A DNA stretch of 36,854 nucleotides from Planctomycetota bacterium. GTDB taxonomy: Bacteria; Planctomycetota; Brocadiia; SM23-32. The position numbers and the translations under genes were made by a program. The stretch covers positions 1-36,854 of the forward strand of contig DAOVRD010000002.1 of the NCBI GenBank assembly GCA_030628375.1. The letters run 5' to 3'. Position 1 is the stretch's first letter, and each line of letters opens with the position of its first letter. Of this stretch, positions 1 to 22,467 are shown one piece after another. The notes under the pieces were generated by a model, which was not told the DNA's origin, searched no databases, and worked only from the letters and a program-made list of their open reading frames with translations.

Positions 1-759
1 CCGCCGCTCACCGCCGGGCTCACCGGCAGGGTCGAAGAGGAACTGGCTGACGTAGAACGCCTTCGCTTTCTGGGCGATCCTGCCGTAGTCCTTACCGCCG
101 GCTGCGCTCAGGTCGCTGGTCGCGATGTGTTCCGCATCTTCGGGCGCCTCGGACGGGCGGACGACGTAGTAGAGGGAGAGCCTGCATCCACGTTGCCGGT
201 TGCAGTCCTTCACGGCGGCGATTACGGGCCGAGTGGCGGCGATGTGCTCCTCGTGGTTGGTCACCCCCTTCTCCGGATCGAGGGCGATGACGAAGGTGGC
301 GTTCTTCTCTTGGAAGAGTTCGGCCAGCTTGACGGCCGGGTCGCCGTCCTGTTCAGTCCACCGCTCGTAGGCCGCCTCGGCCGTCTCTGAGCGGCCGCCT
401 GGCGCCCGCCAGCGCCGGTGGGCCTCCTCCTCAAGGTCCAGCACAGCCAGGCCCTGCGGATGGGCCCGCGACGTGCCGTTCACGTAATCGAAGGTCACGG
501 GCATGCCGCCGAGCATGCGGACGGCCGAGCCGAACTCCTTCCTGCGCACCTGGGCCAGCGTCTGCGTCAGGTCCTCCTTGCCCAGGTTCCATCCCGATTC
601 CCCCTTGGTCAGGGACACAACCACCAACTCTCGGCAGCGGTCGGCGCAGTAGGCCAGCAGCGGGCCGACCAGCGTCTCGTCGTCCGGGTGCGCACCCACG
701 AACACCACCACGTCCTTCTCCTGAAGGCGCTCGACGAACGAATCCCGCCTCATGTTCAT
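1..759 (-). CDS. PIG-L/LmbE family deacetylase; N-terminus in window, C-terminus runs off the left edge
   Basis: Absent from the ORF track because there is no in-window stop. My translation of the minus strand gives MNMRRDSFVERLQEKDVVVFVGAHPDDETLVGPLLAYCADRCRELVVVSLTKGESG..., open for 253 codons down to position 1. AHPDDE is the PIG-L/LmbE metal-site motif. GGGGAGAG abuts the ATG at 759, so the second ATG at 753 may be the true start. Confidence 0.8.
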   Translation of the reverse strand, partial: MNMRRDSFVERLQEKDVVVFVGAHPDDETLVGPLLAYCADRCRELVVVSLTKGESGWNLGKEDLTQTLAQVRRKEFGSAVRMLGGMPVTFDYVNGTSRAHPQGLAVLDLEEEAHRRWRAPGGRSETAEAAYERWTEQDGDPAVKLAELFQEKNATFVIALDPEKGVTNHEEHIAATRPVIAAVKDCNRQRGCRLSLYYVVRPSEAPEDAEHIATSDLSAAGGKDYGRIAQKAKAFYVSQFLFDPAGEPGGERR

Positions 760-1042
760 CTCTCCCCTTGTGCAGCCACAGCAGATGACAACCAGCGCGA
801 TGCCGAGGAATCCCAGGCGCCCGCAGCGATTCTACCCCTTCTCCCATGCTCCAGTCCAAGAACAGTATCAGCCCCACCAGGGTCATTCAATTGCCCCGTA
901 TCGCATCAGATGGATGACCCTGTGGCGGTGGGCGGCAATACAAGCACTCTAACACGATGCACAGGATGAGCAGGACCTGCCAGCCGGCCGGCAGGCTGGT
1001 GCGCACGACAAACTGGGCCCCTCCTCAGCTCGCCGCCTGCCC

Positions 1043-1175
1043 GGGAAAAACAGGGACTGGCATGTCGTTCTATGCCTGTCCCGTTTTTCGCTGCGATGCC
1101 GGAAAATGGGTTTTTCGCCGTAACGCTGGAAAATGGGATACAGGCACCCTCCGGGATGCCAGTCCCCATTTTCCC
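1043..1175. repeat. Hairpin repeat family A, locus 1: two A-tract/stem/T-tract hairpins
   Basis: GGGAAAAACAGGGACTGGCATG..TATGCCTGTCCCGTTTTTCG (1043-1089) and GGAAAATGGGATACAGGCACC..GATGCCAGTCCCCATTTTCC (1128-1175). The same unit (GAAAAnGGGGACWGGCA / TGCCWGTCCCCnTTTTC) recurs at 10715-10776 and 15171-15286. Confidence 0.75.
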
Positions 1176-1378
1176 CGGCCCAAAACATCCCACAACCTCT
1201 TGCCCTGCGCCTCACCCATCGTCCGATAGCCCCTTGCTTGAGTAGCCTCTGCAAGGAGTTATCGGAAGAATCCACCCGCATTTGAATGGGCCTGGTCAGC
1301 CCCCGGCGTCGGCCCGGCCGGCCTGAAGCAGATGCGGCGCTCCACCCCCCGCGTCGGCCGGGATTCAGCAGAGGAAAG

Positions 1379-1407
1379 TTGACGCCGTCGCCTGTGTACC
1401 ATACATT
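1379..1407 (+). promoter_or_regulatory. Candidate sigma70-type promoter of the 1438-9140 operon
   Basis: TTGACG (1379-1384), 17-nt spacer, TACATT (1402-1407), about 30 nt upstream of the ATG at 1438. Sequence match only. Confidence 0.35.
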
Positions 1408-1437
1408 CACGGCAACGAGGAAGCGAGACGAGAGAAT

Positions 1438-2673
1438 ATGCCCGGCAAACGGCTTCTACTGCTTGTGCTTTGTGCGATGCCCATGCTGGGGGTCACAGGA
1501 CCTGCGGCCGTCGTCGCATGTCCCTATTCCTTCCGGCAGGCGGGCTTCGCGGAACTCGATCCGCGCCCGTACTCCGCCTGCTTCGTCCTCAGGGAAACAA
1601 CGGCCGGCAGGGAGAGCCTGTCCCAGTGGATAAGGGAAGCCTCGCTGGAAGTCCTCCTGGGCTCGAACGTGGTGGCGACGACGGTAGACATGGATCAGGA
1701 GCCCTCGCACAGGGCAGCGGACCTCTGCAAGTCCCTGGGAATCGCCACCTTCCCCGCCGTGCTGCTGTTCTCGCCGGATGGAAGGAGCATGGTGGCCGCC
1801 GAAGCGCCCCAGGACGGGGCTTCCAGGGACTGGGTGACATCGCAATTGGAGAAGATGGTCCGTTCGCCCCTTCGCGAGGAGATCGTCCGCAATATCGTGC
1901 GCAACTGGTGCGTCGTCCTCCTTATGGAGGGGGAAGACGCCGAGCAGAACCGCCGGGCCAGGGCCGCGATCGAGTCGGCCGTGCGTCGGATTACGGGCTC
2001 AATAACCGAGACCGGTCTCACGGTTCAAGATGGGCCGTATCTTGTGCTCCCTTCCCCGGGCGCCGCGCAGGAGAGGGTTCTGCTCTGGAGTCTCGGTCTG
2101 GAAGGCGAGGAGGCGGGGCCGGCCGTCGTTGTCCTGTTCGGCAGGGGGCGACAGCTTGGACCCGTATTCAAAGGCCCGTTGATGACGGCCGATGCGTTGC
2201 ATGAGGCCTTCTACCTGCTGGGCAGACGGTGCGTCTGCACGGTGGACAGGCGTTGGCTGTCGGGACGCTCGATCCCGCTGAAGTATCCGGCCTGGTTTGA
2301 GGACGAGGTCCTGCGAAGGGCGCAGATAGACGTATCCAGTCCCGAAGTCAAGCTTCAGATCGCTCCCGGGATGCGATGGCTGTCCGCATACCCGGGCCCG
2401 GCGGGTGACGGCAACGGCTCTGCGCTGCTGGGGACGGGCGCGATGGTCACCGGGCCGCTCGGCTACACTGAGATCGCGCTGGCGCCGCATAACGGCGGGC
2501 CCGGGGCCACCTCGTCGGTTCCCCAGGTAGCGTTGCGCCCCCCTCAACCGATCGAATCCACTCTCTCCTTCGTTGCCCAGATAAGGCGAGTGGTGTTTTT
2601 CCTCGTCACGGCCCTGGTGCTCGTAGCGGTCCTCGGCAGCGTGGCAGTCATGCTGAAGAGAAGGAACGCATGA
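1438..2673 (+). CDS. Exported/bitopic hypothetical protein with N-terminal thioredoxin-fold-like region (CPYS motif) and C-terminal TM anchor
   Basis: 411 aa. N-terminal hydrophobic signal MPGKRLLLLVLCAMPMLGV..AAVVA followed by C-P-Y-S (nt 1519-1530). TFPAVLLFSPDG resembles the cis-Pro/beta3 segment of Trx/Grx folds. C-terminal helix VVFFLVTALVLVAVLGSVAVML followed by KRR. Stop lies 1 nt before the next start. Confidence 0.7.
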   Translation: MPGKRLLLLVLCAMPMLGVTGPAAVVACPYSFRQAGFAELDPRPYSACFVLRETTAGRESLSQWIREASLEVLLGSNVVATTVDMDQEPSHRAADLCKSLGIATFPAVLLFSPDGRSMVAAEAPQDGASRDWVTSQLEKMVRSPLREEIVRNIVRNWCVVLLMEGEDAEQNRRARAAIESAVRRITGSITETGLTVQDGPYLVLPSPGAAQERVLLWSLGLEGEEAGPAVVVLFGRGRQLGPVFKGPLMTADALHEAFYLLGRRCVCTVDRRWLSGRSIPLKYPAWFEDEVLRRAQIDVSSPEVKLQIAPGMRWLSAYPGPAGDGNGSALLGTGAMVTGPLGYTEIALAPHNGGPGATSSVPQVALRPPQPIESTLSFVAQIRRVVFFLVTALVLVAVLGSVAVMLKRRNA

Positions 2674-2674
2674 G

Positions 2675-3820
2675 ATGAGCGCACTGCCGTTGATCTTGCA
2701 GGAGATCTGGCACAGGAAGCTGGACTTCCTGCTGGGCCTGCTGGCCGTCACGATAACCGTAGCCCTCTTCGTAGCCCTCCTCACCATGAGCGGCGCCTCC
2801 GACAGGGAAACCAAGCGTCTGATGCGCGACATGGGGTTCAACCTCTTGATCGTCCCGAAGGACACTGACATGGAGGACTTCTGGGCGAGGGACTTCGCCC
2901 AGGAAGAGATGCCCGAGGACTACGTCCACCGCCTGGCCGGCTCCGGCGATATCCACGCCGACCACTACGTGGCGATCCTCCAGAAGAAGATCGAGTGGCG
3001 TGGGCGACAGATTCTGCTCACGGGTTGGCTGCCGGAGGTGCCATCGGCAAGGAGAACGCGTGAGAAATCCTTCATGGGGCTGGGCGTCCCTCCGGGCAGG
3101 GCCTGCGTGGGATACGAGCTGGCCCGGGGCCTGAACATCCAGCGCGGAGATGAGATCGAGTTGCACGGCAAGTCGCTGCTGGTGGACGCCGTCCTTGCCG
3201 AGGCAGGCAGCAAGGACGACATCCGCCTGTACACCCACCTGCACGACGCGCAGGAGATCCTCAACAAGCCCGGGAAGATCAACATGATCAGGGCACTGGG
3301 ATGCCTCTGCGGCCAGGGCGGACGGCTTTGGAGCATCAGGCCGCAGATCGCGGAGGTCCTTCCTGACACCAGAGTCACGGAATTCCGCTCGATCGCCGTC
3401 GCCCGGGCGGAAACGCGGAGGATGGTGGAGCGACAGGCCGTCCTCATCCTCTCGACGGTCGCCATAGCCTGCGTGATATGGGTCGCGGTGCTCTCCCTCC
3501 TGAACGTCTGGGAACGGCGTCAGGAGATCGGAATTCTCAGGGCGCTGGGTGCAGGCTCGGGAAAGATCGCCGTCCTGTTCCTGGGAAGGGCCGTGTCCGT
3601 CGGGCTGGGCGGAGCGGTCCTCGGCTTCATAATCGGGACCGGTCTTGCGCTGCACTTCGGCCCCACGATCTTCAAGGTGACGGCAGCCGCCATCAAACCC
3701 GTTTACGCGTTGATGGCCCAGTCGCTGGTGGCGGCGCCGCTGGTGGCCCTGCTTGCAAGCCTCTTGCCGACGGTGGTTGCGGTGACCCAGGACCCCGCCG
3801 TCACGATTATGGAAGAATAG
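2675..3820 (+). CDS. ABC transporter permease, FtsX/MacB-type (1 TM + periplasmic domain + 3 TM)
   Basis: 381 aa. N-terminal TM LDFLLGLLAVTITVALFVALLTM, a roughly 220-aa soluble insert, then the FtsX-domain signature WERRQEIGILRALGAGSGKIAVLFLGRAVSVGLGGAVLGFIIG and a terminal TM. Confidence 0.9.
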   Translation: MSALPLILQEIWHRKLDFLLGLLAVTITVALFVALLTMSGASDRETKRLMRDMGFNLLIVPKDTDMEDFWARDFAQEEMPEDYVHRLAGSGDIHADHYVAILQKKIEWRGRQILLTGWLPEVPSARRTREKSFMGLGVPPGRACVGYELARGLNIQRGDEIELHGKSLLVDAVLAEAGSKDDIRLYTHLHDAQEILNKPGKINMIRALGCLCGQGGRLWSIRPQIAEVLPDTRVTEFRSIAVARAETRRMVERQAVLILSTVAIACVIWVAVLSLLNVWERRQEIGILRALGAGSGKIAVLFLGRAVSVGLGGAVLGFIIGTGLALHFGPTIFKVTAAAIKPVYALMAQSLVAAPLVALLASLLPTVVAVTQDPAVTIMEE

Positions 3821-3821
3821 A

Positions 3822-4478
3822 ATGGTCCGCCTGGCGCACGTTACGAAGGTCTACCGACGTGGGAAGGAGGAGGTCCACGCCCTCAAGTGCGCGGACCTGG
3901 CGATTCGGCAAGGGGAGTTTGTGACGGTGGTGGGGCCCAGCGGAAGCGGGAAGTCCACGCTCCTGCTGACCATCGGCGGCATGCTCCACCCGACACAGGG
4001 CACGGTAGAGGTCGGCGGGACCGACGTCTACGCCCTGAGCGGACGGGCGAGGGCGAAGTTCCGTGCCGAGAGAATCGGCTTTGTCTTTCAGATGTTCCAT
4101 CTCCTGCCCTATCTCACCGTGCTGGGGAATGTGCTCCTTCCCGGCCTCATCGCGGCAAGGAAGAGCCAGCGGCAGGAGGCGCTCTCCCTGCTTGAGCACT
4201 TCGGGCTCGGCGACCGGACCCGCCACAAACCGTCCGAACTCAGCACGGGGCAGCGTCAGCGCGCAGCCATGGTTCGTGCCCTGATGAGTCATCCCGCACT
4301 GCTCCTGGCGGACGAACCCACGGGGAACCTGGACCCAGAGAACGCACGTGTTATCATGGATTATTTCGGCGAATTCCATCAGAATGGCGGGACCATCGTG
4401 CTGGTCTCCCATGAACGCCTGGCGGGGGAGTACGCGGATCGCGTAGCCACCATTGAAGACGGCCGGGTCCGAGAGTGA
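3822..4478 (+). CDS. ABC transporter ATP-binding protein (MacB/LolD/FtsE-like)
   Basis: 218 aa. Walker A GPSGSGKST, signature LSTGQRQR, Walker B LLLADEPTGNLD, H-loop VSHE. Confidence 0.95.
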   Translation: MVRLAHVTKVYRRGKEEVHALKCADLAIRQGEFVTVVGPSGSGKSTLLLTIGGMLHPTQGTVEVGGTDVYALSGRARAKFRAERIGFVFQMFHLLPYLTVLGNVLLPGLIAARKSQRQEALSLLEHFGLGDRTRHKPSELSTGQRQRAAMVRALMSHPALLLADEPTGNLDPENARVIMDYFGEFHQNGGTIVLVSHERLAGEYADRVATIEDGRVRE

Positions 4479-4502
4479 CGCGGCCCAAAGGAGGCCGACA
4501 AT

Positions 4503-7500
4503 ATGTTCAACCCACGACCGACAACTTGCGGTCAACAGCGCTGGCGTCTCGGAGCGGCTGCTCCCTGGCTGGTAGTGGCGATCGCCCTTTCCTGCGTCGG
4601 CGCAGCGCGAGCGGAAGACTGGCCGACACACATGCACGACGTCGCCCGCAGTGGAACGACTTCCGAGCGGCTGGCCCTGCCCTTGTCGCCGCACTGGGTC
4701 TTCACTTCCAAACATGCTCCCGAGCCCGCCTGGCCGCCGCCCAAGTCCGTGGAGATCGAGTATGTCCGCGAAGTGCACAAGGTGGACTTCGATGAAGCAT
4801 ACCAGGCGGTTGTGGCCGGTGGCGCCCTCTACTTCGGTTCGTCTGCAGACAATAAGGTCTACTGCCTTGACGCCTCGACCGGAGAGGTGCGCTGGTCTTT
4901 CTTCACCGGCGCCCCCGTGCGGCTGGCGCCGACCGTGTGGAACGGCAAGGTGCTGGTGGGCTCCGACGACGGATTCGCTTACTGCCTGAGCGCGGACACC
5001 GGGAAGCTGCTGTGGAAGTTCAGGGCCGCTCCCCACGACGACGAGCTGCTCGGCAACGGGAAGATGATGTCGCTGTGGCCCGTTCGAACCGGGATTCTGG
5101 TGGACAAGGGGATCGCCTACTTCGCCGCCGGGCTGTTCCCCGGAGAGGACGTGTACCTTTACGCCGTGCGAGCGGAGGACGGCGAGCTGGTCTGGAAGAA
5201 TGACGCCTCGGCCCAGGCGACGTCGGGCTGGCGGTCCTTCTCGCCCCAGGGTTACTTGCTCGCCAGTGCGACAACGCTTTTCGTCCCGTGTGGAAAGGTA
5301 CTCCCTGCGGCCTTCGACAGAAGCAACGGCCGAATGCTCTACCAGCGAGAGAGCGTGCTGTGGTGGCATTCGGCCGAGGGCGGAACTTATGCCCTGCTCG
5401 CCGACGACCATCTGTACGGCGGCGGGCAGGAAGTCGTGGCCTACGACCAGAAGACGGGGGGCGTCGGGTTCGCCTGGTTCCCGGGGCGGCGGCTCATCAC
5501 GAAAGGCGACTTCGCCTATCTGCTTACGGACAACGCATTGTTCGCTCTGGACCGAAAGACCAGCGCCCAGGCAAGCTGGAAGCGCGGCCAGTTCAACGCG
5601 CAGATGAGGAGCCGGCTTGACTACGAGAAGGCCGAACTCCAGAGGAGCCTCAAGTCCCTGAACGTGCAGATAGACGCAGCTCGCAAGGAACTGGAAGAGC
5701 TGGAGAAGCAATCCAAGGAACTGAAGTCGCCCCAGGCCGCAGAGGCCATCGAGCTCAGGAGAACCAGGGACGCGGTGAGCCAGAAGATCGAGTCGCTGTC
5801 CAGCCAGCCCGATGCTGTAACTCAGCGACTGGCAGAGATAGAAGAACAGTTCAACAACCATGAGAAGCTGGAGGAAGCCTATCGCAAGACCGTCATCTGG
5901 CAGACGCCGTGCGAGAGGCCCGAATCAATGATCCTTGCCGGAGAAGTCCTGTTCGCCGGCGCCCAGGACGAAGCGCTGGCATTCGATGCAGCCACCGGCA
6001 AGGAACTCTGGCGAGGAAAAGTGGACGGCAAGGCCAAAGGATTGGCTGTCTCGGGCGGACGTCTGTTCGTGAGCACGGACAAGGGCGCCATACATTGCTT
6101 CGGAGACGGCAAGCGGGCCGCTCCCGTGCTGGTTGCCGATCCCCTCGAACCCGACCCCTATCCCGAAGACAAGCTCACGCCCATCTACAAGGCCGCGGTG
6201 GAGCGCATCATAAAGGAGACGGGCGTCACGAAGGGCTACTGCCTCGTCCTGGGCTCCGGGCAAGGAAGGCTCGCCTTCGAGATCGCCAGGGCAACGGACC
6301 TGGTCATCTACGGGATAGACGAGGACGCGAAGGACGTCCGCAAAGCAAGAGAAGCACTCGATGCGGCCGGGCTCTACGGGACCCGCGTGACCGTCCAAAA
6401 GGGGTCACTGTCCGATCTGCCCTACGCGGACTACTTCGCCAACCTCATCGTATCCGACGAGATGCTCATTTCGGGCCGCCGGCCGGGTTCGGCCGACGAG
6501 ATGTTCCGTGTCCTGAAGCCCTGCGGCGGAGTGGCCTACATAGGTCAGCCGAAGGAGACAATGAAGCTGTGGCGACGGCTCAATGCGAAGAAGCTCCGAC
6601 AGTGGCTGAAGGAAGCGGAGGTCGCCGACGCCCAGCTTACCGAAGGCGACGGCGTATGGGCGAAGATCGAACGGGGACCGCTTCCCGGGGCCGGCAAGTG
6701 GACCCACCAGTACGCCAACCCGGCGAACACCACCTGCTCCGACGACGAACTGGTCCGGCTCCCCCTGGGGGTGTTGTGGTTCGGCCGCCCGGGCCCCGCC
6801 AAGATGGTGCAGCGGCACTACGCCGTAGCCGCCCCTCTGTCCGTCAACGGTCGGATGTTCATCCAGGGCGAGAACGTCGTGATGGCTTACGATGCCTACA
6901 ACGGCGTGCAGCTCTGGGAGCGGGAGATCGAGGGCGCGATGCGCGAAAACATGCGCGGCGACTGTAGCAACCTGGCGGCCGACGAAGACAGCCTGTTCGT
7001 GGCCGTGGCGGACAAATGCCTCCGTCTGGACGCGGCAACCGGTGAGACCCGGCAAACCTACAGCCTGCCCCCGTTCCCGGACGCGGCGCCGCAGTCGTGG
7101 GGTTACGTCGCCGTCGTGGGCGACGTGCTCTTCGGCAGCACGACCCAGGAAGGCAGCACCTGCGACCTCGTCTTTGCCCTCGACGTGGACAGCGGCAGAC
7201 TTCGATGGGACCACCGGGGCAAGACGATATCCCACAACACCATCGCCATCGGTGACGGCCGCGTGTTCCTTGCCGAAAGCGACGTGACCGCCGAGCAGCG
7301 GCAGGAAGCGCTGAAGCAGAAGCTCGTCCGGCTGCCAGCCCCCGAGGAACCGGAAGCGGCCGAAGCGCAAGAGGAACTCGACAGCGCCGACGTGCGACTG
7401 GTCTGCGCCCTGGACGCCGATTCGGGCAGCGTAGTCTGGCAGACGCCCGTGGACCTGACCGACTGCGGTGACTGGCTCCTCCATGCCATCTACCAGAACG

Positions 7501-9140
7501 ACATCCTTCTGTTCGTGGGATCGTTCCCAAACGGCCACTACTGGCGCCAATTCCACGCCGGCGCACTTGCCCACCGGCGTGCGGTGGCCCTGTCGGCCGA
7601 TGACGGGCTCGTGCTGTGGAATCGCGCGCTGGGGTATCGCACGCGTCCGATCGTCAACGGGAACACGATATACGCCGACCCGTGGGCCTTCGACCTGTGG
7701 ACGGGCGAGCAGGTAATGCGCACGCACCCCGTCACCGGCGAGAAGGGCCCGTGGGAGTTCGGCCGCGGTCACCACTGCGGCGCGGTCTCCGGCTCGCCCA
7801 ACTGCCTGTTCTTCCGGTCCCTGACCACCGCGTTCTACGACCTGATCAGGGATTCCGGCGTGCTCCACTTCGGCGGCCATCGCCCCGGCTGCTATATCAA
7901 CACGATAGCGGCGAACGGCCTGGTGCTGCAGCCGGAAGCCAGTTCGGGCTGCGTCTGCCCTTTCTCCATCCATGCCACCGTCGTCTTCAAGCCCAGGCGC
8001 ACGGACAGGGCGTGGGGCACGTTCTGCTCGTACACGTCTGACCACAAAGAGGCCGGCTTCATCCAAGACTGGCTCATCTGTGGCCCGTTCCCCAACTACC
8101 TGGAAGGCGACCAGACGGACTACGAAAACCACAGGAAGCTGTGCTGGGGGTACGCGCATGATTTCCTCGAGGAGCACGGCGGGGAGGCATTCGTGATCCC
8201 ACACGAAGGCATGGAGTGCAAGCACGCCGCCGCGCTGAAGTGGCGAAACAAACAGATGGAGGCCGTATACGGCGGGAAGACACCCGTATGGCAGAAATAC
8301 GAATCTCCGGAGTACTTAGTAGACTTCGAGAGCCTGTTCCCGGGTGCCGATGACAGCGTGGCCTACGCCTACTGCGAGATAGATTCCGCGCAGGACAGGG
8401 AAACGGTCCTGGGCGTGGGCAGCGACGACGGGATCAAGATATGGCTCAATCACGAAGTGGTTCACGACCACCATATCGGCAGAGGGGCGAGAGTGGACGA
8501 GGACCAGGTGCCCGTCCGCCTCAAGAAAGGCAAGAACAAGCTGCTGGTCAAGGTGGACGAGAGTGCCGGAGCGTGGGGCTTCTACCTGCGGGAACTCCCC
8601 CTGATGCGCGTCAGGCATCTGGCCCTCAACTTCGGCGCGCCGGGGGACAGGAGAGACAGAAGCGGCACTCTGTGGCTCGGGTATCCTCGCCCCAGCCTGC
8701 CCCTCGCCCTCGAATTCAACATGAGGACCTCAATCCTGCCCGGACTCGGCTACTACCAACTCAACCCCGAAGGCGTGCGTATCGAGGGGACGGACAAGCC
8801 CTGGCTCTTCTCCTTCGGCTGCTGCGGACTCACCAGGTGCGTCGTTCCCGTCATCGGACAGGGCCAGGAGCCGGGCCTCTACACCGTGCGGCTGGGGTTC
8901 GCCGAACTGGGCGACGCAGGCAAAGGCCAGCGTGTCTTCGACATCAAGCTCCAGGGGCGACAGCTCGCAATGGCCGTGGACATCCGCAAGGAAGCCGGCG
9001 GTCCGAACAGGGCGATGGTCAGGGAGTTCAAGGGCATAAGGGTCAGGCGAGACCTGACGATCGAGCTTGTTCCGAAAGTCCAGAACCCCACGCAAGGCCA
9101 GGCCCCCCTCATAAGCACCCTGGAACTGATCCGCGAGTGA
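4503..9140 (+). CDS. Giant exported multidomain protein: PQQ-like beta-propeller, coiled coil, class I SAM methyltransferase-like domain, second propeller, beta-sandwich, malectin-like domain
   Basis: 1545 aa. AAGGAGG lies 8 nt upstream. Signal peptide ..LVVAIALSCVGAARA/EDW. PQQ/BamB-like repeats (KVYCLDASTGEVRWSF, FAYCLSADTGKLLWKF). Heptad-rich segment at about nt 5600-5885. GxGxG motif CLVLGSGQGRLAFEIA..VIYGIDED..FRVLKPCGG (about nt 6170-6560). WLICGPFPN..GIKIWLNHEVV..FYLRE (about 8060-8595). C-terminal GQRVFDIKLQG..VDIRKEAGGPNRAMVREF is malectin-like (about 8610-9137). Confidence 0.9.
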   Translation: MFNPRPTTCGQQRWRLGAAAPWLVVAIALSCVGAARAEDWPTHMHDVARSGTTSERLALPLSPHWVFTSKHAPEPAWPPPKSVEIEYVREVHKVDFDEAYQAVVAGGALYFGSSADNKVYCLDASTGEVRWSFFTGAPVRLAPTVWNGKVLVGSDDGFAYCLSADTGKLLWKFRAAPHDDELLGNGKMMSLWPVRTGILVDKGIAYFAAGLFPGEDVYLYAVRAEDGELVWKNDASAQATSGWRSFSPQGYLLASATTLFVPCGKVLPAAFDRSNGRMLYQRESVLWWHSAEGGTYALLADDHLYGGGQEVVAYDQKTGGVGFAWFPGRRLITKGDFAYLLTDNALFALDRKTSAQASWKRGQFNAQMRSRLDYEKAELQRSLKSLNVQIDAARKELEELEKQSKELKSPQAAEAIELRRTRDAVSQKIESLSSQPDAVTQRLAEIEEQFNNHEKLEEAYRKTVIWQTPCERPESMILAGEVLFAGAQDEALAFDAATGKELWRGKVDGKAKGLAVSGGRLFVSTDKGAIHCFGDGKRAAPVLVADPLEPDPYPEDKLTPIYKAAVERIIKETGVTKGYCLVLGSGQGRLAFEIARATDLVIYGIDEDAKDVRKAREALDAAGLYGTRVTVQKGSLSDLPYADYFANLIVSDEMLISGRRPGSADEMFRVLKPCGGVAYIGQPKETMKLWRRLNAKKLRQWLKEAEVADAQLTEGDGVWAKIERGPLPGAGKWTHQYANPANTTCSDDELVRLPLGVLWFGRPGPAKMVQRHYAVAAPLSVNGRMFIQGENVVMAYDAYNGVQLWEREIEGAMRENMRGDCSNLAADEDSLFVAVADKCLRLDAATGETRQTYSLPPFPDAAPQSWGYVAVVGDVLFGSTTQEGSTCDLVFALDVDSGRLRWDHRGKTISHNTIAIGDGRVFLAESDVTAEQRQEALKQKLVRLPAPEEPEAAEAQEELDSADVRLVCALDADSGSVVWQTPVDLTDCGDWLLHAIYQNDILLFVGSFPNGHYWRQFHAGALAHRRAVALSADDGLVLWNRALGYRTRPIVNGNTIYADPWAFDLWTGEQVMRTHPVTGEKGPWEFGRGHHCGAVSGSPNCLFFRSLTTAFYDLIRDSGVLHFGGHRPGCYINTIAANGLVLQPEASSGCVCPFSIHATVVFKPRRTDRAWGTFCSYTSDHKEAGFIQDWLICGPFPNYLEGDQTDYENHRKLCWGYAHDFLEEHGGEAFVIPHEGMECKHAAALKWRNKQMEAVYGGKTPVWQKYESPEYLVDFESLFPGADDSVAYAYCEIDSAQDRETVLGVGSDDGIKIWLNHEVVHDHHIGRGARVDEDQVPVRLKKGKNKLLVKVDESAGAWGFYLRELPLMRVRHLALNFGAPGDRRDRSGTLWLGYPRPSLPLALEFNMRTSILPGLGYYQLNPEGVRIEGTDKPWLFSFGCCGLTRCVVPVIGQGQEPGLYTVRLGFAELGDAGKGQRVFDIKLQGRQLAMAVDIRKEAGGPNRAMVREFKGIRVRRDLTIELVPKVQNPTQGQAPLISTLELIRE

Positions 9141-9293: not shown

Positions 9294-10376
9294 CTATTCC
9301 TCTGCGGGCTCCTCACGCTCCTTTTGGTCTTCCGATTCGCGCCACTTCTTCCAGCCGAAGTAGACAGCGGCGAAGACCGGTCGCGCATCCTCTCGGATTT
9401 GCTCCCAGTCCTGCTCCGATGACAACCAGAGGCGCGTCCAGTCACCCGCTCGCTCAGCACCGTGTTTCTCTGCGAACTCCGTGACGGCCTCATTTGCCAC
9501 CCGGTAGGCCCGTTCGCCGAACTCCAGTGCGACTCTGCGGCTGTTCTGGTCCAGCCAGGCGCCTGCATATATGCGATGGCTGAGATTACCTCGGTCTGTC
9601 AACTCCTGTAGATAGAAGCCATACTTGCTCTGCGTGGGATCGACGTACACGACTCGTTCCATGCTGTCCTCTGCTGTTTCCCGAACCTCTTCCATCAGAC
9701 CCCAGAGCCCCAGCGCCCGAGCGTTTTGCTTCAAAGCTTCCAACCTCTCTTTCTTCGTCGGCCATTTGTGCTGTGGGGCGGGACCGCCACTTTCGATTTC
9801 GACCTGGCGTGCCAGCAGGAACTCCTCTCCCCTCTGGAACCCGTAAAAGGTGATGAGTGTGATATCAACCCCTGAATCTGCCAGGAATGACACCATCGCG
9901 CGGGTTGCCTCATCCGCACCCAGGCCCAGCAGTGCGAGCCGTGGAGGACCGGCCAAGTCCGCTTCTTCGTTAGGAAAGTTCTCTTCGTACCATTCTCTGA
10001 AGTCCCCGACCGGTCGGATGCCGCCCTCGCCGGATCGCTCGGAGATGTGTTCGGCCAACTCGTCGGCGCCCATGTTGTTGAGCTGGGCGGCGTAATCTAT
10101 GACCTGGGCAACCGCCTCCCGGCGCAGAGTCCCTCGCTTCAGCTCAAACACCACCAAACGCCCCTCCTCGTCGACTCCCAGCAGGTCGAGAGGGCCGTCC
10201 TGAGTCGGCACCTGGCGACCGACGAGCTTCAGGTTAGGCATGAGCATGTCAGGTTCCTGAACGAGGAGGTCCTCAAGCAGATCCTCCGCTTCTGCGTCGC
10301 TGACTTCTTCCAGGGAAGTCACCTGTCGGTGAGTCTCGCCCGACCTGCTGACTTGCCAGATCCTGATCTTCTGCAT
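9294..10376 (-). CDS. PD-(D/E)XK nuclease superfamily protein, NucS/DUF91-like N-terminal core with uncharacterised C-terminal half
   Basis: The track ORF is 9294..10469. I prefer the internal ATG at 10376 (MQKIRIWQV...) because the first 31 residues look non-native. Motif PLDLLGVDEEGRLVVFELKRG..AVAQVIDYAAQL (nt about 10131-10190) is the D...ExK core seen in NucS/RecB-like nucleases. GC is visibly lower than in the neighbours. Confidence 0.7.
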   Translation of the reverse strand: MQKIRIWQVSRSGETHRQVTSLEEVSDAEAEDLLEDLLVQEPDMLMPNLKLVGRQVPTQDGPLDLLGVDEEGRLVVFELKRGTLRREAVAQVIDYAAQLNNMGADELAEHISERSGEGGIRPVGDFREWYEENFPNEEADLAGPPRLALLGLGADEATRAMVSFLADSGVDITLITFYGFQRGEEFLLARQVEIESGGPAPQHKWPTKKERLEALKQNARALGLWGLMEEVRETAEDSMERVVYVDPTQSKYGFYLQELTDRGNLSHRIYAGAWLDQNSRRVALEFGERAYRVANEAVTEFAEKHGAERAGDWTRLWLSSEQDWEQIREDARPVFAAVYFGWKKWRESEDQKEREEPAEE

Positions 10377-10714
10377 CGGTTGGCTCGTTCTATGCTGTGT
10401 GGCCGCGCCAACGATCCTCTTCAGGCAGCGCCAGAGGATCGCTAGTAGCACGAAGACATCGCGCGCCACTTCATGCCACCGTACGCCAGATCGCGCGCAG
10501 TCAGTGACGCTAGGACGTCACGGTCCGTAGGAACTATGAGTTAGTCCTTGCCCACTACTCGCCGGTAAGTGTTTACCGTCCAGCTTTGCTTAGAATGAGT
10601 GTAAGCCGCGACATGGGGCTTGTCAACCATTCTTTCCGCCGGGCGGATTTCAGTGTCGTCCACGCAGGCTCCGTCGCGTCAATTCTGCTCTGAGTTCCTT
10701 CTCGGCGGTTCCGT

Positions 10715-10946: not shown

Positions 10947-13900
10947 CTAACGGCCCGAGCGGCGGCTTCGGATTCCTTCGAGGGCGACTTCCAGGCTCCG
11001 GCGGGCTACATTGTCGCTCGGGTTTGTGGCAAGGACTTCGGATAAGTGCGCGGCGGCCGCTTCGAACTCGCCCCGGTCAATCAGAACAATGCCCATGCTC
11101 CTGCGGGCAGGCGTTAACCCGGGGTCGAGCCGAAGCGCCTCAGCCCATTCCGCCATCGCCTCGTCCGTTCGCCCCCGCGCGGCAAGGGCCATTCCGAGGT
11201 TGCTGTGGGTCTCGGCCGAGTCCGGGTCGAGCCGCAGCGCGCTCAAGTAGTGGGCGACCGCCTCGTCGAATCTGCCCTGTGAAGCCAATGCGAACCCAAG
11301 ATTATGATGCGCAACCGCATTGTCGGGCTCCAGGGCCAGCGCGTTACGGTAGAGGGTGACGGGCTGATCCCGGTTGCCCGGCACGGCCATGGCACGCCTG
11401 GCCAGCCACATCAGCCCGACGGCGCTGTCCGCGTAGTACGCGGCCACCCCCCGGACCCACTTCAGGCCCTGGGCCAGGTTCTCTCCGTACTTCCGGAACT
11501 TCGCATCTTCCGGCAGCAGCGCAACAGCCTGCGGGACCTGTGTTGCGAACATCAGCGCGTTGGCCGCCGCGCGCAGAGTCAACTCGCGCTCAAGCGTTTG
11601 GGCTTCAGTCTCGCTCCCGGTGTTGCGCACGTAGGGCCAGACGCTTTCCACCAGGAGCAGGAACGTAGTCCCTGTGCACTTGGGCCCGGCGGAGTATCTT
11701 GTCTTATACTGAACATAAGGCAGATCATCGGTGTTGATCGGGCCCTCGCCGGTCCATTCCCGCAGGCGTTCCTCACCGCAGACGAAAGTCTCAAGTATTC
11801 CCAGCGGGTTCTCCAGGCCCCAGGGGCGCAGATCCGCATTGACCTCCGCCGCCGAAAGCTTCTCCCTCATTGCCCCCACGTCTATCGTCAGCCTGTCCGC
11901 TGTCCCCACGAGGTGCGTGTGACCTCCGTACACACCGGTCTCCGCCACGCCGTGTGAATACCAGAGGCTTGCGTGGGGGAATACGCACTGAAACGTCCTG
12001 ACGATACTCTGGTACTCCGCAACGCTCAGCTCCTGAAACGGCACCCACTGCACGTAGATGCCGTCGTCAGTCAGATGCTCCTTGATCGTCTGGTAGAACT
12101 CGCGGGTGTAGAGGACCCACGCATCGCTGGACTTGGGGTGCAGGGAGTCCGAAACGATCACGGGCCACTTCTTGCGCGACATCAGGACGTAGTTCCGGCC
12201 GTCGTCAATTGCCACGCGCACCTTCGGATCATTCAGGACGGAGTTGTTCGCTTCCTCCAGGACCTTGGCGCCCTCCAGAACGCTGCTCTCAAGGTCCACC
12301 GCCAGCACTGACTTGACGTCGGGATAGCGCGCGGCAGCCCCGGAAGCGATGCCGCCGCCGAAACAGATCATCAACACTTCCTCAGGATTCGCGTGCAGCA
12401 GCGGACCAAGGGCTGCCATCAGCTTGAAGCACACCATCTCCGTATACGCAGTGGTCACCTCGACCGCGCCGTTCATGTAGAGATACTTCACTTTGCTGAC
12501 TTTGTCCTGAACGATTGTTTCCGTGCTCGTCCTTCCCTCCCGGTAGAAGACGATGTCCCTGTGTCTCCTCAGGTGCACACTGAAGGGGAGGCCGACCCTT
12601 TGACACAGGTCCGGCGGGATGACAAGGGTGAAGACCAGCACGACGACCAGCGCGGCCGCCCCGGCGCACGCCAGACCCAGCGATTTCCGCCGCGTCGCCG
12701 ATGCCAACAACAGCGTCGTGCCGACAATCCAGTACAGCAGGCTGATGAGAAGGATGCTCTTCTGGATGCCAATGACGGGGACCAGCACGAAAACCGGAAT
12801 GAGCGACCCGACGATTGTGCCGAGCGTGTTCAGGGCGTAGACGGTGCCGACGCTGCGACCAACGGTAGCCACGCTTCGAGCGTAAGCTGCGCAAATGAGG
12901 GGAAACACGACTCCCATGACCATCGTGGGCGCCAGCACGGTGATGATCGTCATGGGCCAGAGGGAGAGAGGGATGGTCGCGCGGGACGACGATATGAGCG
13001 CCCCCAGCGCGAAGCAGACGACGACCGTCAGGCCGAGGAGCAATTGCGCCCCCGCCAGAATCCGCAGCGATGCCCCGAATCTGGCCAGGAAGTACCGATA
13101 GATCAAGCTGCCCAGCCCGATGCCCAGCAGGTAGATGCCGAGGATCGTGGGGAATGTGTAAGCCATGTTGGCCAGCGGACCAAGATACCGCAGCCACAGC
13201 ATCTCGCAGGAAAGGGCCGCCAACCCGGAAACAAACGCTACCGGCAGCAGTAACCCTCTCGTCCCTGGCGGGAGTCCTCTTGCTTGTGCAGCGGCTGCGG
13301 GACTGCCAGCAGCGCCCCCGACCGGCGCCGCAGCCGGCCGGACAGGCAGCGGAACCTTGCCTCGCCGGTACTTGAAGCCGAGGGCAAGCGCGCCCGCGGC
13401 GATGAGCAGGTTGGTGCCAACGGCCGCCTGGTTGGTGACCGACACCCCGAGAGTATCAATCAGCCAGTAGCCTGCCGCAAAACATCCCAGTGTCGCCCCG
13501 AGGGTGTTCAACGCATACAGCAGGCTCACGCGCGCGCCGATCACTTCGCGTGATTCGGTGCAGAAGCGAGTCAGTAGAGGCAGCGTCGCGCCCATCAGTG
13601 CGCAGGGCACAAACAGGATGCCGAACGAGATCACAACGCGAGCACCCATGGACAACAGCACCGACTCGGGCGCAAGCAGGGCAACGCGCGGCAGCCACCA
13701 CCGAAGGGCTGCAAGCAACAGCGGCACGCCCATCGCCCACAGAGCAATGACGGCCTGGATAGTCCCATACATCAGCAGCCGGTGGGGGAAGCGGTCCGCA
13801 AGTCGGCCGCCCAACCAACTCCCGACCCCCAACCCGGCCATGAAAGCGCACAGCACGACACTGATGGAGTAAGTGCTTGCACCAAGGACCGTCACGAACT

Positions 13901-14069
13901 GACGGCTCCACAGTATTTCAAGAACCAGCGCGGTCGCACCGGACAGGAAGAACGCGCCATAGACGGCCAATCGAAACCCCACTGCGGGCCCCAGAGGCGG
14001 CGCCACCTCACTTCCTTGCGGAGCCTGAGTCTCTGCTGGTCGGTTGCCCATGGCCGGCCGCGTCCCCAA
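10947..14069 (-). CDS. Fused polytopic membrane (MFS-like) / spermidine synthase-like / TPR-repeat protein
   Basis: 1040 aa. The N-terminal half is multi-TM (FFLSGATALVLEILWSRQ.., many hydrophobic helices). Central SpeE-like Rossmann region (VLMICFGGGIASGAAARYPDVKSVLAVDLE). C-terminal TPRs (AVAHHNLGFALASQGRFDEAVAHYLSALRLDPDSAETHSNLGMAL..). Confidence 0.9.
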   Translation of the reverse strand: MGTRPAMGNRPAETQAPQGSEVAPPLGPAVGFRLAVYGAFFLSGATALVLEILWSRQFVTVLGASTYSISVVLCAFMAGLGVGSWLGGRLADRFPHRLLMYGTIQAVIALWAMGVPLLLAALRWWLPRVALLAPESVLLSMGARVVISFGILFVPCALMGATLPLLTRFCTESREVIGARVSLLYALNTLGATLGCFAAGYWLIDTLGVSVTNQAAVGTNLLIAAGALALGFKYRRGKVPLPVRPAAAPVGGAAGSPAAAAQARGLPPGTRGLLLPVAFVSGLAALSCEMLWLRYLGPLANMAYTFPTILGIYLLGIGLGSLIYRYFLARFGASLRILAGAQLLLGLTVVVCFALGALISSSRATIPLSLWPMTIITVLAPTMVMGVVFPLICAAYARSVATVGRSVGTVYALNTLGTIVGSLIPVFVLVPVIGIQKSILLISLLYWIVGTTLLLASATRRKSLGLACAGAAALVVVLVFTLVIPPDLCQRVGLPFSVHLRRHRDIVFYREGRTSTETIVQDKVSKVKYLYMNGAVEVTTAYTEMVCFKLMAALGPLLHANPEEVLMICFGGGIASGAAARYPDVKSVLAVDLESSVLEGAKVLEEANNSVLNDPKVRVAIDDGRNYVLMSRKKWPVIVSDSLHPKSSDAWVLYTREFYQTIKEHLTDDGIYVQWVPFQELSVAEYQSIVRTFQCVFPHASLWYSHGVAETGVYGGHTHLVGTADRLTIDVGAMREKLSAAEVNADLRPWGLENPLGILETFVCGEERLREWTGEGPINTDDLPYVQYKTRYSAGPKCTGTTFLLLVESVWPYVRNTGSETEAQTLERELTLRAAANALMFATQVPQAVALLPEDAKFRKYGENLAQGLKWVRGVAAYYADSAVGLMWLARRAMAVPGNRDQPVTLYRNALALEPDNAVAHHNLGFALASQGRFDEAVAHYLSALRLDPDSAETHSNLGMALAARGRTDEAMAEWAEALRLDPGLTPARRSMGIVLIDRGEFEAAAAHLSEVLATNPSDNVARRSLEVALEGIRSRRSGR

Positions 14070-16562: not shown

Positions 16563-18221
16563 ATGATGCCGATGCGGAGCCTGCGGCGTTTGGCCTGCCT
16601 GCTCCTGGCCGTGCCCATCATAGCGGTGGTGTTGGCCGTCACGGGCTCAGGCGCCGGAGCGGGGGCCGTCCGACCCGCAGCGGTGGCCGGGACCTTTTAC
16701 CCGGGGCGGGCCCGATCGCTGCGCGCGACGGTCGAGGACTTCCTCGCTGAGGCCAGTCCGAAGGTCCCCAACGGATGGCGAGAGGCCGGCCTGCGGGCGC
16801 TGATCGTTCCCCATGCGGGCTACGTCTACAGCGGTCGGACGGCCGCTGTCTCCTACAAGCTACTCGAGGGCATCAAGAAGCCGTCGCGCGTGATACTGCT
16901 GGGCCCCCCCCATCGCGCCCACATTCCCGGAGCGTGCAGCGTGGCCGACTTCTCGCACTACGCGACGCCGCTGGGCCGGGTGGAAGTGGACGCAGAGGCC
17001 CGAAAGAAACTGGTCCGCTCCGAGCCGTTCCGCGCCATGCGGCGGCCACACGAGCACGAACACTGTCTGGAAGTGCAGCTCCCATTCCTCCAGGTGATCT
17101 GGCCCGAGCCGCCGAAGATCGTGCCGATTCTGGTCGGGCAAATCGGCGGCCACGACTACCGGGCCGCGGCGGCCGGCATCGCGCGCATACTCGATGAGGA
17201 CACGCTCATCGTCGTAAGCACTGACTTCACACACTACGGAGCGAGATTCGGCTTCGCCCCCTTTAGAGGGACGCCGTCGGACCAACTGCGCGCAAAGATC
17301 AGGGAACTCGACATGGGCGCCGTCAGGCACATCGAGGCCCTCGATCCCGCCGGGTTCCGCCAGTACCAGGCGCAGACGGGCGCCACGATCTGCGGCCGTG
17401 CGGCCGTGAGCGTCATGCTGGAGCTGTTCTCACAGGCCGGGCAGGCCCGGGCCGAGTTCCTGCAGTGGACCAATTCCGGGGAAGTGACCGGTTCCTACAG
17501 CGATTGCGTCAGCTACGTCGCCCTGGCTGTTTGGGCGCCGTCGGACGCCCTGCCGCAGATCAAGAAGGCGCTGCCGGCCCAGGTGGCACGCGGCCCTCGC
17601 CAGGGGGCCCCTCTCCAGGGGGCGGAAGAACCTGGCGTTGCTCGCGCCCTCACCGACGAGCACAAGCGCATGCTGTTGAAGCTGGCCCGTCAGTCCATAG
17701 AGACGCGACTGGCCGGCAGGGAGGCCGCGGCGGGCGCACCCGCAGTAGGGGCGGACGAAATGCCCGAAGCCCTGCGCGGCAAGCACGGGGCGTTCGTGAC
17801 GCTCAAGAAGAACGGGGAGCTTCGCGGCTGCATCGGACACATCGTGTCCAACCAGCCGCTGTACCTCTGCGTGCGCGAAGTGGCGCGCCTGGCAGCGCTG
17901 TCCGATCCCCGGTTCCCGCCCCTTGAGGAATCCGAGCTGGGCGAGATCACGATCGCCATAAGCGTCATGAGCCCTCCGAAGAAGGTGGAGAGCGTCCAGG
18001 AGATAGAGGTCGGCCGGGACGGCCTGATCATCAGCAAGGGCGGCAGGCGCGGATTGCTGCTGCCGCAGGTGGCCACCGAACGGGGATGGACCAGAGACGA
18101 GTTCCTCGCGCACACGTGCCGCAAGGCCGGCCTGCCCGACGATGCCTGGCAGCAGGAGACAGTGACGATACATCGGTTCGCGGCCACCGTGTTCGGCGAA
18201 GCAGACACGGCGTCGGACTGA
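16563..18221 (+). CDS. Fusion of MEMO1-family (AmmeMemoRadiSam protein B-like) and AMMECR1 (protein A-like) domains with an N-terminal signal/anchor
   Basis: 552 aa. N-terminus MMPMRSLRRLACLLLAVPIIAVVLAVTGSGAGAGA. MEMO hallmarks AGTFYPG and ALIVPHAGYVYSG. AMMECR1 hallmark GAFVTLKKNGELRGCIGH..LSDPRFPPL. GGGGGAG lies 5 nt upstream of the ATG, and the gene starts 24 nt after the phosphatase gene. Confidence 0.9.
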   Translation: MMPMRSLRRLACLLLAVPIIAVVLAVTGSGAGAGAVRPAAVAGTFYPGRARSLRATVEDFLAEASPKVPNGWREAGLRALIVPHAGYVYSGRTAAVSYKLLEGIKKPSRVILLGPPHRAHIPGACSVADFSHYATPLGRVEVDAEARKKLVRSEPFRAMRRPHEHEHCLEVQLPFLQVIWPEPPKIVPILVGQIGGHDYRAAAAGIARILDEDTLIVVSTDFTHYGARFGFAPFRGTPSDQLRAKIRELDMGAVRHIEALDPAGFRQYQAQTGATICGRAAVSVMLELFSQAGQARAEFLQWTNSGEVTGSYSDCVSYVALAVWAPSDALPQIKKALPAQVARGPRQGAPLQGAEEPGVARALTDEHKRMLLKLARQSIETRLAGREAAAGAPAVGADEMPEALRGKHGAFVTLKKNGELRGCIGHIVSNQPLYLCVREVARLAALSDPRFPPLEESELGEITIAISVMSPPKKVESVQEIEVGRDGLIISKGGRRGLLLPQVATERGWTRDEFLAHTCRKAGLPDDAWQQETVTIHRFAATVFGEADTASD

Positions 18222-19114: not shown

Positions 19115-19231
19115 CGCGACGCCATACAGCCCGATGAGAGCAGCTCGCCGTCCGAGGGGGTCGCGGCCATGTTGAGGCAAGCCGCCGGACGGCCGTGCTC
19201 AGTGATTCCTTATATGTCAGGAGGTTGTGCC

Positions 19232-20107: not shown

Positions 20108-20128
20108 GGCTGCGCTACATTACGAGCC
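20108..20128 (-). repeat. Partial extra copy of the repeat B core, overlapping the dnaA stop codon
   Basis: GGCTGCGCTACATTACGAGCC is identical to 20046-20066. The TTA at 20120-20122 is the dnaA TAA stop on the minus strand. Confidence 0.75.
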
Positions 20129-22391: not shown

Positions 22392-22467
22392 TGGTGGAGG
22401 ATACGGGGATCGAACCCGTGACCTCGACAATGCCATTGTCGCGCTCTCCCAGCTGAGCTAATCCCCC
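22392..22467 (-). tRNA. tRNA-Ala (anticodon GGC), CCA encoded
   Basis: Minus strand reads GGGGGAU UA GCUC AGCUGGGA GAGC G CGACA AUGGCAU UGUCG AGGUC ACGGG UUCGAUC CCCGU AUCCUCC ACCA (76 nt). It folds by hand into a full cloverleaf. The G3:U70 alanine identity pair is present and the anticodon loop is A-U-GGC-A-U. Confidence 0.93.

Follow-up and report, generated by a model that had tools for sequence, protein, structure and literature searches.

What is the function of an operon in which the permease and the ATPase of an ATP-binding cassette (ABC) system are encoded side by side with two exported proteins of unrelated fold? The question is raised by four genes, here called A to D, that lie near one end of a 36,854-nucleotide stretch of DNA from a Planctomycetota bacterium (contig DAOVRD010000002.1; the whole stretch is referred to as the window) and that had been singled out in a first reading of this DNA, hereafter the original prediction. 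Gene A is predicted to encode a membrane-anchored protein with two thioredoxin folds, B an FtsX-type permease, C an ABC ATPase, and D a giant exported protein with two propellers. On the evidence of sequence comparison, the four genes are a real and widespread envelope system whose linkage is not due to chance. As the best reading of its role we infer an ATP-driven hand-over, within the periplasm, of a metal, a sulfur species or a disulfide to protein D.

Linkage of the four genes across genomes

A word-indexed protein search returned 12 homologues of A, three of which adjoin both an FtsX gene and a gene for a propeller/methyltransferase protein. A locus scan, based on one peptide pattern and one genome per species and not exhaustive, found 89 loci, 80 of which were kept. 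All 80 come from metagenome-assembled genomes (MAGs), and the loci are distributed over the Planctomycetota, Verrucomicrobiota, Bacteroidota, Omnitrophota, Armatimonadota, Calditrichota, Gemmatimonadota, Acidobacteriota and Cloacimonadota. A hidden Markov model search of 1.84 billion cluster representatives revealed 699 A-family clusters (50% identity) at E<=1e-30 and 1029 at E<=1e-10.

Linkage was quantified by tblastn with the window proteins at 32 A loci, from about nine phyla, that have at least 6 kb of sequence on both sides. B was found in 25 of these well-flanked loci, C in 23, the first propeller of D in 27 and its methyltransferase fold in 26; B and D occurred together in 21, and a single locus had neither. 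Clustering of the open reading frames (ORFs) of 83 loci placed A in 75, D in 56, the ATPase in 54 and B in 50. Conservation of the gene neighbourhood had been named as a check in the original prediction, and the quartet does recur in most related loci, across about nine phyla. The gene order is not fixed (A-B-C-D, A-D-B-C, D'-A-B-C and B-C-D-A, D' being a form of D with circularly permuted domains), which rules out that a frozen block was simply inherited.

In a Verrucomicrobiota MAG, A and D are fused into a single in-frame ORF (L054 915-5648, identical to P0067). The anchor helix of A, a short basic loop and the signal-like helix of D are predicted to form a transmembrane hairpin at the junction, which therefore would place the large parts of A and D on the same side of the membrane. 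A role of A as adaptor for D would fit this fusion. A further variant was observed at locus L001 (11241-12719), an A-B-D cluster without an ATPase gene in which a 67-aa PhdYeFM antitoxin-like ORF occupies the ATPase position.

A cysteine signature common to three unrelated folds

A Cys-x-Cys (CxC) motif was present in 75 of 76 A, 48 of 50 B and 61 of 71 D-family ORFs, some of the last being split fragments that comprise propeller 1 only. In neighbouring gene families the motif was found in 0/20, 2/20, 0/7, 1/11 and 12/72 ORFs (0-17%). The only invariant columns in an alignment of 138 A sequences were C28, C265, C267 and D298, and Cys28 was also invariant in a set of 70 homologues (70/70 and 138/138). 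The C210, C212 and H97 residues of B were present in all 52 of the A-linked homologues. For D, four cysteines at the end of propeller 2 were invariant in 24 of 24 cluster-linked homologues and were kept in 102-106 of the 102-106 sequences aligning there among the 120 best global homologues. From these invariant residues we infer putative thiolate-rich sites made of three Cys and an Asp in A, two Cys and a His in B, and four Cys in D. A rare CxC motif that is invariant in three unrelated, predicted extracytoplasmic folds is the strongest mechanistic clue provided by these alignments.

Operon layout and upstream region

The coordinates and spacing of the four ORFs given in the original prediction were reproduced (Table 1), with gaps of 1, 1 and 24 nt between A/B, B/C and C/D, as was the upstream site TTGACG-17-TACATT. 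This site, at 1379-1407, agrees with the promoter consensus at 9 of 12 positions; the 11 kb scanned contained four sites matching as well, versus 1.4 expected, and taken alone the match is weak evidence for a promoter. Comparison with the contig of a close relative (L087) was more informative as to where the unit begins. On this contig, A (82% identity), B (94%) and the beginning of C follow one another, likewise with 1-nt gaps, and the gene upstream of A, encoding an alpha-L-fucosidase, differs from that in the window. The two sequences agree at about 94% of the approximately 95 nt preceding the start codon of A, both hexamers included, and are unrelated farther upstream. Because synteny breaks exactly at the start of A while the leader is kept, the unit appears to begin at A with a conserved leader of its own. 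Spacing, conserved upstream region and this break in synteny together uphold the earlier proposal that the four genes are one unit. At the 3' side, the neighbouring gene (9294-10469) lies on the opposite strand.

The absence of membrane-fusion, TolC-like and amidase partners, already remarked upon in the original prediction, extends beyond this locus: by the window annotation, no gene for a membrane-fusion protein, TolC/OEP or amidase lies beside the operon, and none of these families is among the recurrent gene families of 83 related loci. Riboswitch control by molybdenum cofactor (Moco) or S-adenosylmethionine (SAM) was not supported, since an Rfam scan of the window and five loci gave no match above the gathering score.

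Two repeat elements were observed upstream of the operon. The intergenic region 1035-1180 holds an imperfect repeat or palindrome element, in which GGAAAATGGG is present in two direct copies (1101, 1128) and one inverted copy, CCCATTTTCC (1165). The element also has outer arms, GCCCGGGAAAA/TTTTCCCCGGC, and, at 1083-1136, a 27-nt tandem repeat. Directly 5' of the promoter-like site, at 1300-1372, a stretch of about 45 nt, CCCCC(G/C)GCGTCGGCC(C)GG...CAGA, is duplicated in tandem; it occurs once in L087 and is a possible operator or regulatory element.

Table 1. Features of the operon and of its predicted products (aa, residue numbers of the respective protein).
Feature	Position in window (nt)	Strand	Basis
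Conserved upstream region: promoter-like site and operon 5' leader	1340-1437	+	Consensus scan; comparison with L087
Gene A, predicted exported, C-terminally anchored tandem thioredoxin-fold protein, 411 aa	1438-2673	+	AF2 model, Foldseek, hydropathy
A, Cys28 motif C-P-Y-S-F-R-Q-A-G-F, predicted mature N-terminus	1519-1548	+	Alignments, signal-site check
A, invariant Cys265-x-Cys267; downstream Asp298 also invariant	2230-2238	+	138-sequence alignment
Gene B, FtsX-type (type VII ABC) permease, four predicted transmembrane helices, 381 aa	2675-3820	+	PF02687, hydropathy
B, periplasmic Cys210-x-Cys212; His97 (nt 2963-2965) also invariant	3302-3310	+	52 homologues
Gene C, ABC ATPase subunit, 218 aa	3822-4478	+	ABC_tran 112 bits, motifs
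Gene D, predicted exported multidomain protein, 1545 aa	4503-9140	+	Pfam, hydropathy
D, signal peptide, aa 1-37; sole hydrophobic segment, aa 14-37			
D, propeller 1, aa ~38-540, PQQ_2-type, with coiled-coil insert 366-462			
D, methyltransferase fold, aa ~560-700			
D, propeller 2, aa ~720-1165			
D, four-Cys motif C1092, C1130, C1150-x-C1152 (HxCG...RPGC...PEAsxGCxC), end of propeller 2	7776-7958	+	
D, weak PA14-like insert, aa ~1176-1395			PA14 match, E=0.063
D, malectin, aa ~1400-1545			

Protein A is a predicted tandem thioredoxin-fold protein

Protein A matched no family in Pfam or NCBIfam and no PDB sequence at E<=10, and its homologues are annotated as "hypothetical" at the source. It has two hydrophobic segments, a predicted signal peptide (aa 5-28) and a predicted C-terminal anchor (aa 376-408) followed by basic residues. 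Modelling by AlphaFold2 (AF2) with 138 sequences yielded a mean confidence (pLDDT) of 86.6 and a predicted template-modelling score (pTM) of 0.77, compared with a pLDDT of 65 when 12 homologues were used. The model comprises two beta-alpha-beta-alpha-beta-beta-alpha thioredoxin-like domains (aa 45-141 and 158-263), for which Foldseek returned the PDI a-b domains, ERp44 and QSOX1 with probability 1.0 and low template-modelling scores (0.2-0.34). The view that the first gene encodes a bitopic, thioredoxin-fold-like protein is thus borne out by a confidently predicted tandem fold between a signal peptide and a C-terminal anchor.

The same does not hold for the CPYS sequence, which had been taken as the motif of this fold. 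An AxA-type signal peptidase I site directly precedes Cys28 in 65 of 70 sequences, so mature A probably begins with Cys28. The family consensus at this point is C-[RPQK]-[YF]-[NTS]-[VI]-R-[DE]-x-G-F, in which Tyr/Phe30, Arg33 and Phe37 are nearly invariant and the Pro and Ser of the window's CPYS are not conserved. Of the invariant cysteines, one is at the predicted mature N-terminus and the CxC pair follows domain 2, and both thioredoxin domains lack a Cys at the canonical active-site position (CxxC/CxxS at the N-terminus of helix 1). We therefore rejected CPYS as a glutaredoxin or thioredoxin active site and regard it as a local variant at the predicted mature N-terminus. That A is a lipoprotein handled by a Lol-like B/C pair is likewise unlikely, given AxA sites in 65/70 signal peptides and a fit to even a permissive lipobox in 16/70.

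B and C form a type VII ABC core outside the curated families

Protein B matched FtsX (PF02687) with 47.9 bits (gathering cut-off 25.5). A hydropathy scan placed transmembrane segments at aa 14-43, 250-281, 298-333 and 342-372, leaving about 205 residues (aa 44-249) between the first and the second for a predicted periplasmic domain. Solved structures of YtrF, MacB, LolF and LolC/E match B in the membrane region only. The periplasmic domain on its own had no Pfam match, and MacB_PCD (PF12704) was not matched even at E<=5. The motifs of the ATPase C are intact: Walker A (GPSGSGKS), a Q-loop, the signature LSTGQ, Walker B (LLLADE) and the H-loop (SHE). By domain content and predicted topology, B and C are of the type VII ABC class, as in the original prediction of a MacB/FtsX-type module with a separate ATPase, which the PF02687 and ABC_tran matches and the four-helix topology support.

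Membership of the pair in a known Lol, Mac or FtsEX system would have refuted the original prediction, and the curated families do not support such membership. The best NCBIfam matches of C are LolD, DarD, FtsE and MacB, all under their cut-offs (LolD TIGR02211, 212.3 vs 307.75; FtsE TIGR02673, 185.3 vs 264.85). B scored 41.2 vs a cut-off of 362.45 for LolC/E (TIGR02212) and 18.3 vs 255 for FtsX (TIGR00439); MacB (NF007826) gave 15.5 vs 966. Nor were canonical partners found: no LolA-type carrier recurs in the A loci examined, and neither the operon nor its neighbours contain the domain of a peptidoglycan hydrolase activator of the EnvC/PcsB type. With curated scores this far under the cut-offs and the expected partners missing, a canonical Lol, FtsEX or MacB system was rejected.

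Protein D and its relatives

The domains of D had been described as those of a giant exoprotein combining a pyrroloquinoline quinone (PQQ)-type propeller, a methyltransferase and a malectin. All three were recovered (PQQ_2, 142 bits; Methyltransf_25, 39.2 with a cut-off of 27; Malectin, 37.8), and PDB entry 3dlc matched the methyltransferase fold at E=8e-18. The malectin and the glycine loop of the methyltransferase did not prove typical of the family. A malectin tail is present in 5 of the 32 well-flanked loci, other homologues having PA14, LamG, CHB_HEX_C or fn3 domains instead, and malectin was therefore discarded as part of the core module. The variable, lectin-like tails suggest that D acts at or on envelope glycans. 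The glycine loop of the methyltransferase fold is canonical in the window (LGSGQG, GxGxG), and an acidic residue follows strand 2 in 24/24 linked homologues; the full GxGxG was found in 16 of 24 linked and 11 of 73 global homologues, the middle Gly being Glu in 48 of the latter, and D', with its circularly permuted order, has a degenerate loop. Because the loop is non-canonical in most family members, SAM-dependent catalysis by D is not safe to assume and an obligate SAM methyltransferase is a weakened candidate, a doubt that also eases the problem of how SAM would be supplied in the periplasm.

Homologues of D are annotated at the source only as "BamB family", "PQQ-binding-like" or "methyltransferase domain" proteins. 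D itself reached neither curated cut-off, scoring 76.3 vs 285.2 for BamB (TIGR03300) and 67.5 vs 480 for PQQ dehydrogenase (TIGR03075), and we rejected it as a true member of either group. No solved homologue covering the four-Cys region was found by PDB profile search. Two further cysteines, C161 and C532, are near-invariant and probably disulfide-bonded. The coiled-coil insert in propeller 1 is not conserved among D homologues.

Several variants of D were observed. D' (about 1030-1050 aa) has the order methyltransferase-like fold, propeller 2 (with the C-D-C motif), propeller 1, and keeps the four-Cys motif; it occurs at L011 (6828-9992), L027 (6802-9885) and about 20 other loci, usually directly upstream of A. 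D is also found split into two genes, and D paralogues exist that have no A, B or C within 10 kb. The N-termini differ between lineages: Bacteroidota homologues (L059, L075, L076, L080) have lipoprotein-type signal peptides (e.g. LLMAAC, GVMSC, LFQSC), and those of the Planctomycetes-Verrucomicrobia-Chlamydiae (PVC) phyla have AxA sites followed by (E/D)DWP.

Molybdate-type and other neighbours

At least one gene of ModA-type, NifC/ModB-like, MoeB-like, MoaD-like or TauE type was present in 25 of the 83 loci. ModABC-type importer genes occur in about a quarter of the loci, with a binding-protein-dependent permease (NifC/ModB-like) in 20 and a double-length SBP_bac_11 binding protein (ModA-type) in 18, the two families that rank next in frequency after A to D. 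Smaller, overlapping subsets contain ThiF/MoeB-like genes (10 loci; closest NCBIfam family MoeB), ThiS/MoaD-like genes (8 loci; reaching the MoaD family cut-off and ending in Gly-Gly) and TauE/SafE genes (7 loci), and one locus adds a MoeZ-type ThiF-rhodanese. The binding protein of L079 passes ModA TIGR01256 (116.7 vs 62.5), and the permease scores 203.8 with TIGR01581, just under the cut-off of 210.3. In the Bacteroidota and the PVC phyla alike, these genes often stand in tight same-strand arrays directly beside A; the order at L050 is ModA-B-C, MoaD, MoeB, TauE, A, B, C, D. At L014 and L030, among others, A accompanies the molybdate-type set in the absence of both B and D.

A pseudopilin-like gene of the prepilin type (N_methyl; about 240 aa) was also seen to recur beside A, at 13 loci (including L009, L010, L013, L014, L024 and L065) and often between D' and A. 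Since prepilin-type genes are very common in Planctomycetota, a link to A is uncertain.

Other genes in the window

The window is chromosomal, as judged by a dnaA-like gene (20120-21724, minus strand) and a tRNA gene (22395-22467, minus strand). Besides the operon it contains a gene (10947-14069, minus strand) for a 1040-aa protein with a spermine/spermidine synthase-like domain and C-terminal TPR repeats, a single 552-aa ORF in which Memo-like and AMMECR1 domains are fused (16563-18221), and a gene for an Fe/Mn superoxide dismutase (19169-19969). The N-terminus of the latter weakly matches a Tat signal (20.0 bits vs a cut-off of 22.7), which would imply export of a normally cytoplasmic type of enzyme.

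Discussion

We propose that A to D make up a conserved envelope module built on a type VII (MacB/Lol/FtsEX-class) ABC motor, in which ATP turnover drives the hand-over of a periplasmic cargo to D. We hold this reading tentatively and judge its chances to be somewhat short of even. A role in hand-over or maturation, one not considered in the original prediction, is suggested by the invariant CxC motifs together with the neighbouring ModABC, MoaD and MoeB genes. MacB, LolCDE and FtsEX work by mechanotransmission; by analogy, C2 would be the cytoplasmic ATPase, and B2 would pass ATP-driven movement to its periplasmic domain with no substrate crossing the membrane. Protein A, membrane-anchored and with two redox-inactive thioredoxin folds, would serve as adaptor or chaperone holding a thiophilic cargo. 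B would dock A and D by way of its own CxC/His site, and ATP turnover would drive hand-over of the cargo to the four-Cys site of D, or reset that site. B/C and A would thus constitute a maturation or loading machine, with D and its stand-alone paralogues as clients; one machine serving several clients would fit the existence of D paralogues encoded away from A, B and C. NosDFY-NosL-NosZ sets a precedent, being a system in which an ABC motor drives the loading of metal into a propeller enzyme of the periplasm.

As to the cargo, the gene neighbours offer as their best lead a metal or metal-sulfur species tied to molybdate/tungstate uptake, possibly with a link to the sulfur of a carrier protein. 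No other step of the proposal is as weak, because the genes concerned are absent from about 70% of the loci and the importer feeds the cytoplasm. Several observations weigh against the hand-over reading more generally. Within the flanks fetched, 7 of the 32 well-flanked loci were without B and 5 without D, and at L001 no ABC ATPase was detected within 10 kb. The window has no ModABC/MoaD/MoeB genes, in common with the majority of loci just mentioned, the importer would deliver to the cytoplasm and not to the periplasm, and besides the molybdate-type transporter no metal-handling gene is recurrent in the loci. Finally, the conserved Cys residues may form disulfides of a structural kind, which exported proteins usually have.

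A more explicit version of the hand-over can be formulated, namely an ATP-powered relay in which a thiophilic metal or metal-sulfur unit moves from the Cys3(Asp) site of A to the Cys2His site of B and on to the Cys4 site of D, installing a cofactor that would be new and pterin-free. The best candidate for this unit would be a molybdenum- or tungsten-sulfur species, made from imported molybdate/tungstate and MoaD/MoeB sulfur and exported by TauE. In this much detail the proposal is quite unlikely to be right. If it were, the double-propeller enzymes would be a new class, and the module would be the second ABC-driven extracytoplasmic cofactor assembly after Nos, here with a type VII motor.

Among the alternatives, a dedicated thiol-disulfide pathway would make A a PDI-like oxidase or isomerase for strained CxC disulfides in D, with the CxC of B as the relay by which A is reoxidised or reduced, and with no metal. 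The closest structural matches of A are indeed PDI, ERp44 and QSOX1, the residues at its N-terminal Cys (C-R-F/Y-S/T/N) resemble the CRFS of ERp44, all partners are predicted to be extracytoplasmic, and the near-invariant C161 and C532 of D are probably disulfide-bonded. CxC disulfides are redox-active in Mia40 and Erv2, a property that would suit such a pathway. We nevertheless consider it unlikely: neither domain of A has a Cys at the canonical active-site position, the number of invariant Cys in A is odd, a need for ATP hydrolysis is left unexplained, B is not known to be connected with quinones or with the thioredoxin of the cytoplasm, and the ModABC/MoaD/MoeB/TauE neighbours are not accounted for.

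A low probability is also given to a version of the original prediction, in which B controls D allosterically or anchors it with A as adaptor; the control would here be FtsEX-like, A passive and the cysteines purely structural. Its architecture and logic are those of FtsEX-EnvC-amidase, the conserved linkage and the A-D fusion are what it would lead one to expect, and D has a coiled-coil insert; coiled coils mediate the binding of EnvC and PcsB to FtsX. However, the insert is not kept among D homologues, and a CxC that is invariant in three unrelated folds and rare in neighbours is hard to explain by structure alone.

A Lol- or MacB-like function, in which B/C releases a lipid-anchored protein from the membrane or pumps a small product of D out of the periplasm, is improbable. 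It draws on the best NCBIfam and PDB matches of B (LolC/E, LolF, MacB and YtrF) and on the lipoprotein-type N-termini of D in Bacteroidota. These scores are, however, far under the cut-offs (41 vs 362; 15.5 vs 966), the recurrent gene families include neither LolA nor a membrane-fusion or TolC partner, and because anchoring of D varies among signal peptidase I cleavage, lipobox and transmembrane hairpin fusion, lipoprotein extraction is not the conserved role. Chance adjacency of four genes with no functional link is scarcely credible in view of linkage in varied order across about nine phyla, one fusion and a common motif signature. A defence system was also considered and rejected, PADLOC having given only generic ATPase, methyltransferase and LolE-membrane domain matches.

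If the hand-over model is true, the module would represent a new route of periplasmic cofactor or redox maturation, and it would provide a first function for hundreds of large "BamB family" or "PQQ-like" proteins of Planctomycetota, Verrucomicrobiota and Bacteroidota. Should the model be wrong, genetic and structural work would still have a clear target in the conserved linkage and the fusion of A with D.

Comparison with known systems

The combination of the four genes was not found in the literature searched in full text nor in curated families, in keeping with the original prediction that it is not a described system. Its relation to known systems differs from component to component. In working principle, the closest match may be NosDFY-NosL-NosZ, which, like the proposed module, has a tethered chaperone, an ABC motor, a propeller client and a hand-over in the periplasm. 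The likeness is one of principle only: the families are unrelated, NosY being an ABC-2 type permease, NosD a beta-helix protein and NosL a lipoprotein, and none of the NosD, NosY, NosL and NosZ families is among the Pfam and NCBIfam matches of A to D.

For the individual proteins, LolCDE/LolF and MacAB-TolC provide the best sequence and PDB matches of C and of the membrane region of B. Unlike these systems, the module has a single permease gene, no MacB_PCD match and no LolA, MacA or TolC partner; unlike MacAB-TolC, it has no fused ATPase-permease, and no HlyD or OEP was found in the window or among recurrent neighbours. Protein A, taken alone, comes closest in working principle to the copper chaperones Sco1/SenC and Cox11, which like it are membrane-anchored and extracytoplasmic. 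Sco in addition has a thioredoxin fold, and the cysteines of Cox11, a single Cys and a CxC, equal those of A in number and pattern. A differs from them by having no detected sequence similarity, two thioredoxin folds, no Cys at the CxxxC position and no cytochrome oxidase context. With PDI, ERp44 and QSOX1 it has in common the tandem a-b type arrangement, but it is bacterial and membrane-anchored and lacks a canonical CxxC/S as well as a thioredoxin Pfam match. Propeller 1 of D is of the PQQ_2 type, as in BamB and the PQQ dehydrogenases, from which D is set apart by a second propeller bearing the four-Cys motif.

In overall design the module is like FtsEX with EnvC, PcsB or RipC, which likewise combines a separate ATPase with a four-helix FtsX-type permease that has a periplasmic domain, acts on an extracytoplasmic protein partner with no transported solute, and has no membrane-fusion or outer-membrane component. 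It differs in that a LytM, CHAP or amidase partner is replaced by a tandem thioredoxin-fold protein and a double-propeller protein, and we know of no FtsX for which an invariant periplasmic CxC/His is a described feature. To our knowledge, the jobs assigned to type VII ABC systems are few, comprising lipoprotein release, control of cell-wall hydrolases, TolC efflux and detoxification of heme or peptides. The module would add to them a widespread member with entirely different partners, and it would be categorically new if a metal or sulfur relay is true. By analogy with these systems, it is best described as a putative type VII ABC mechanotransduction system with a new set of partners and a motif signature of its own.

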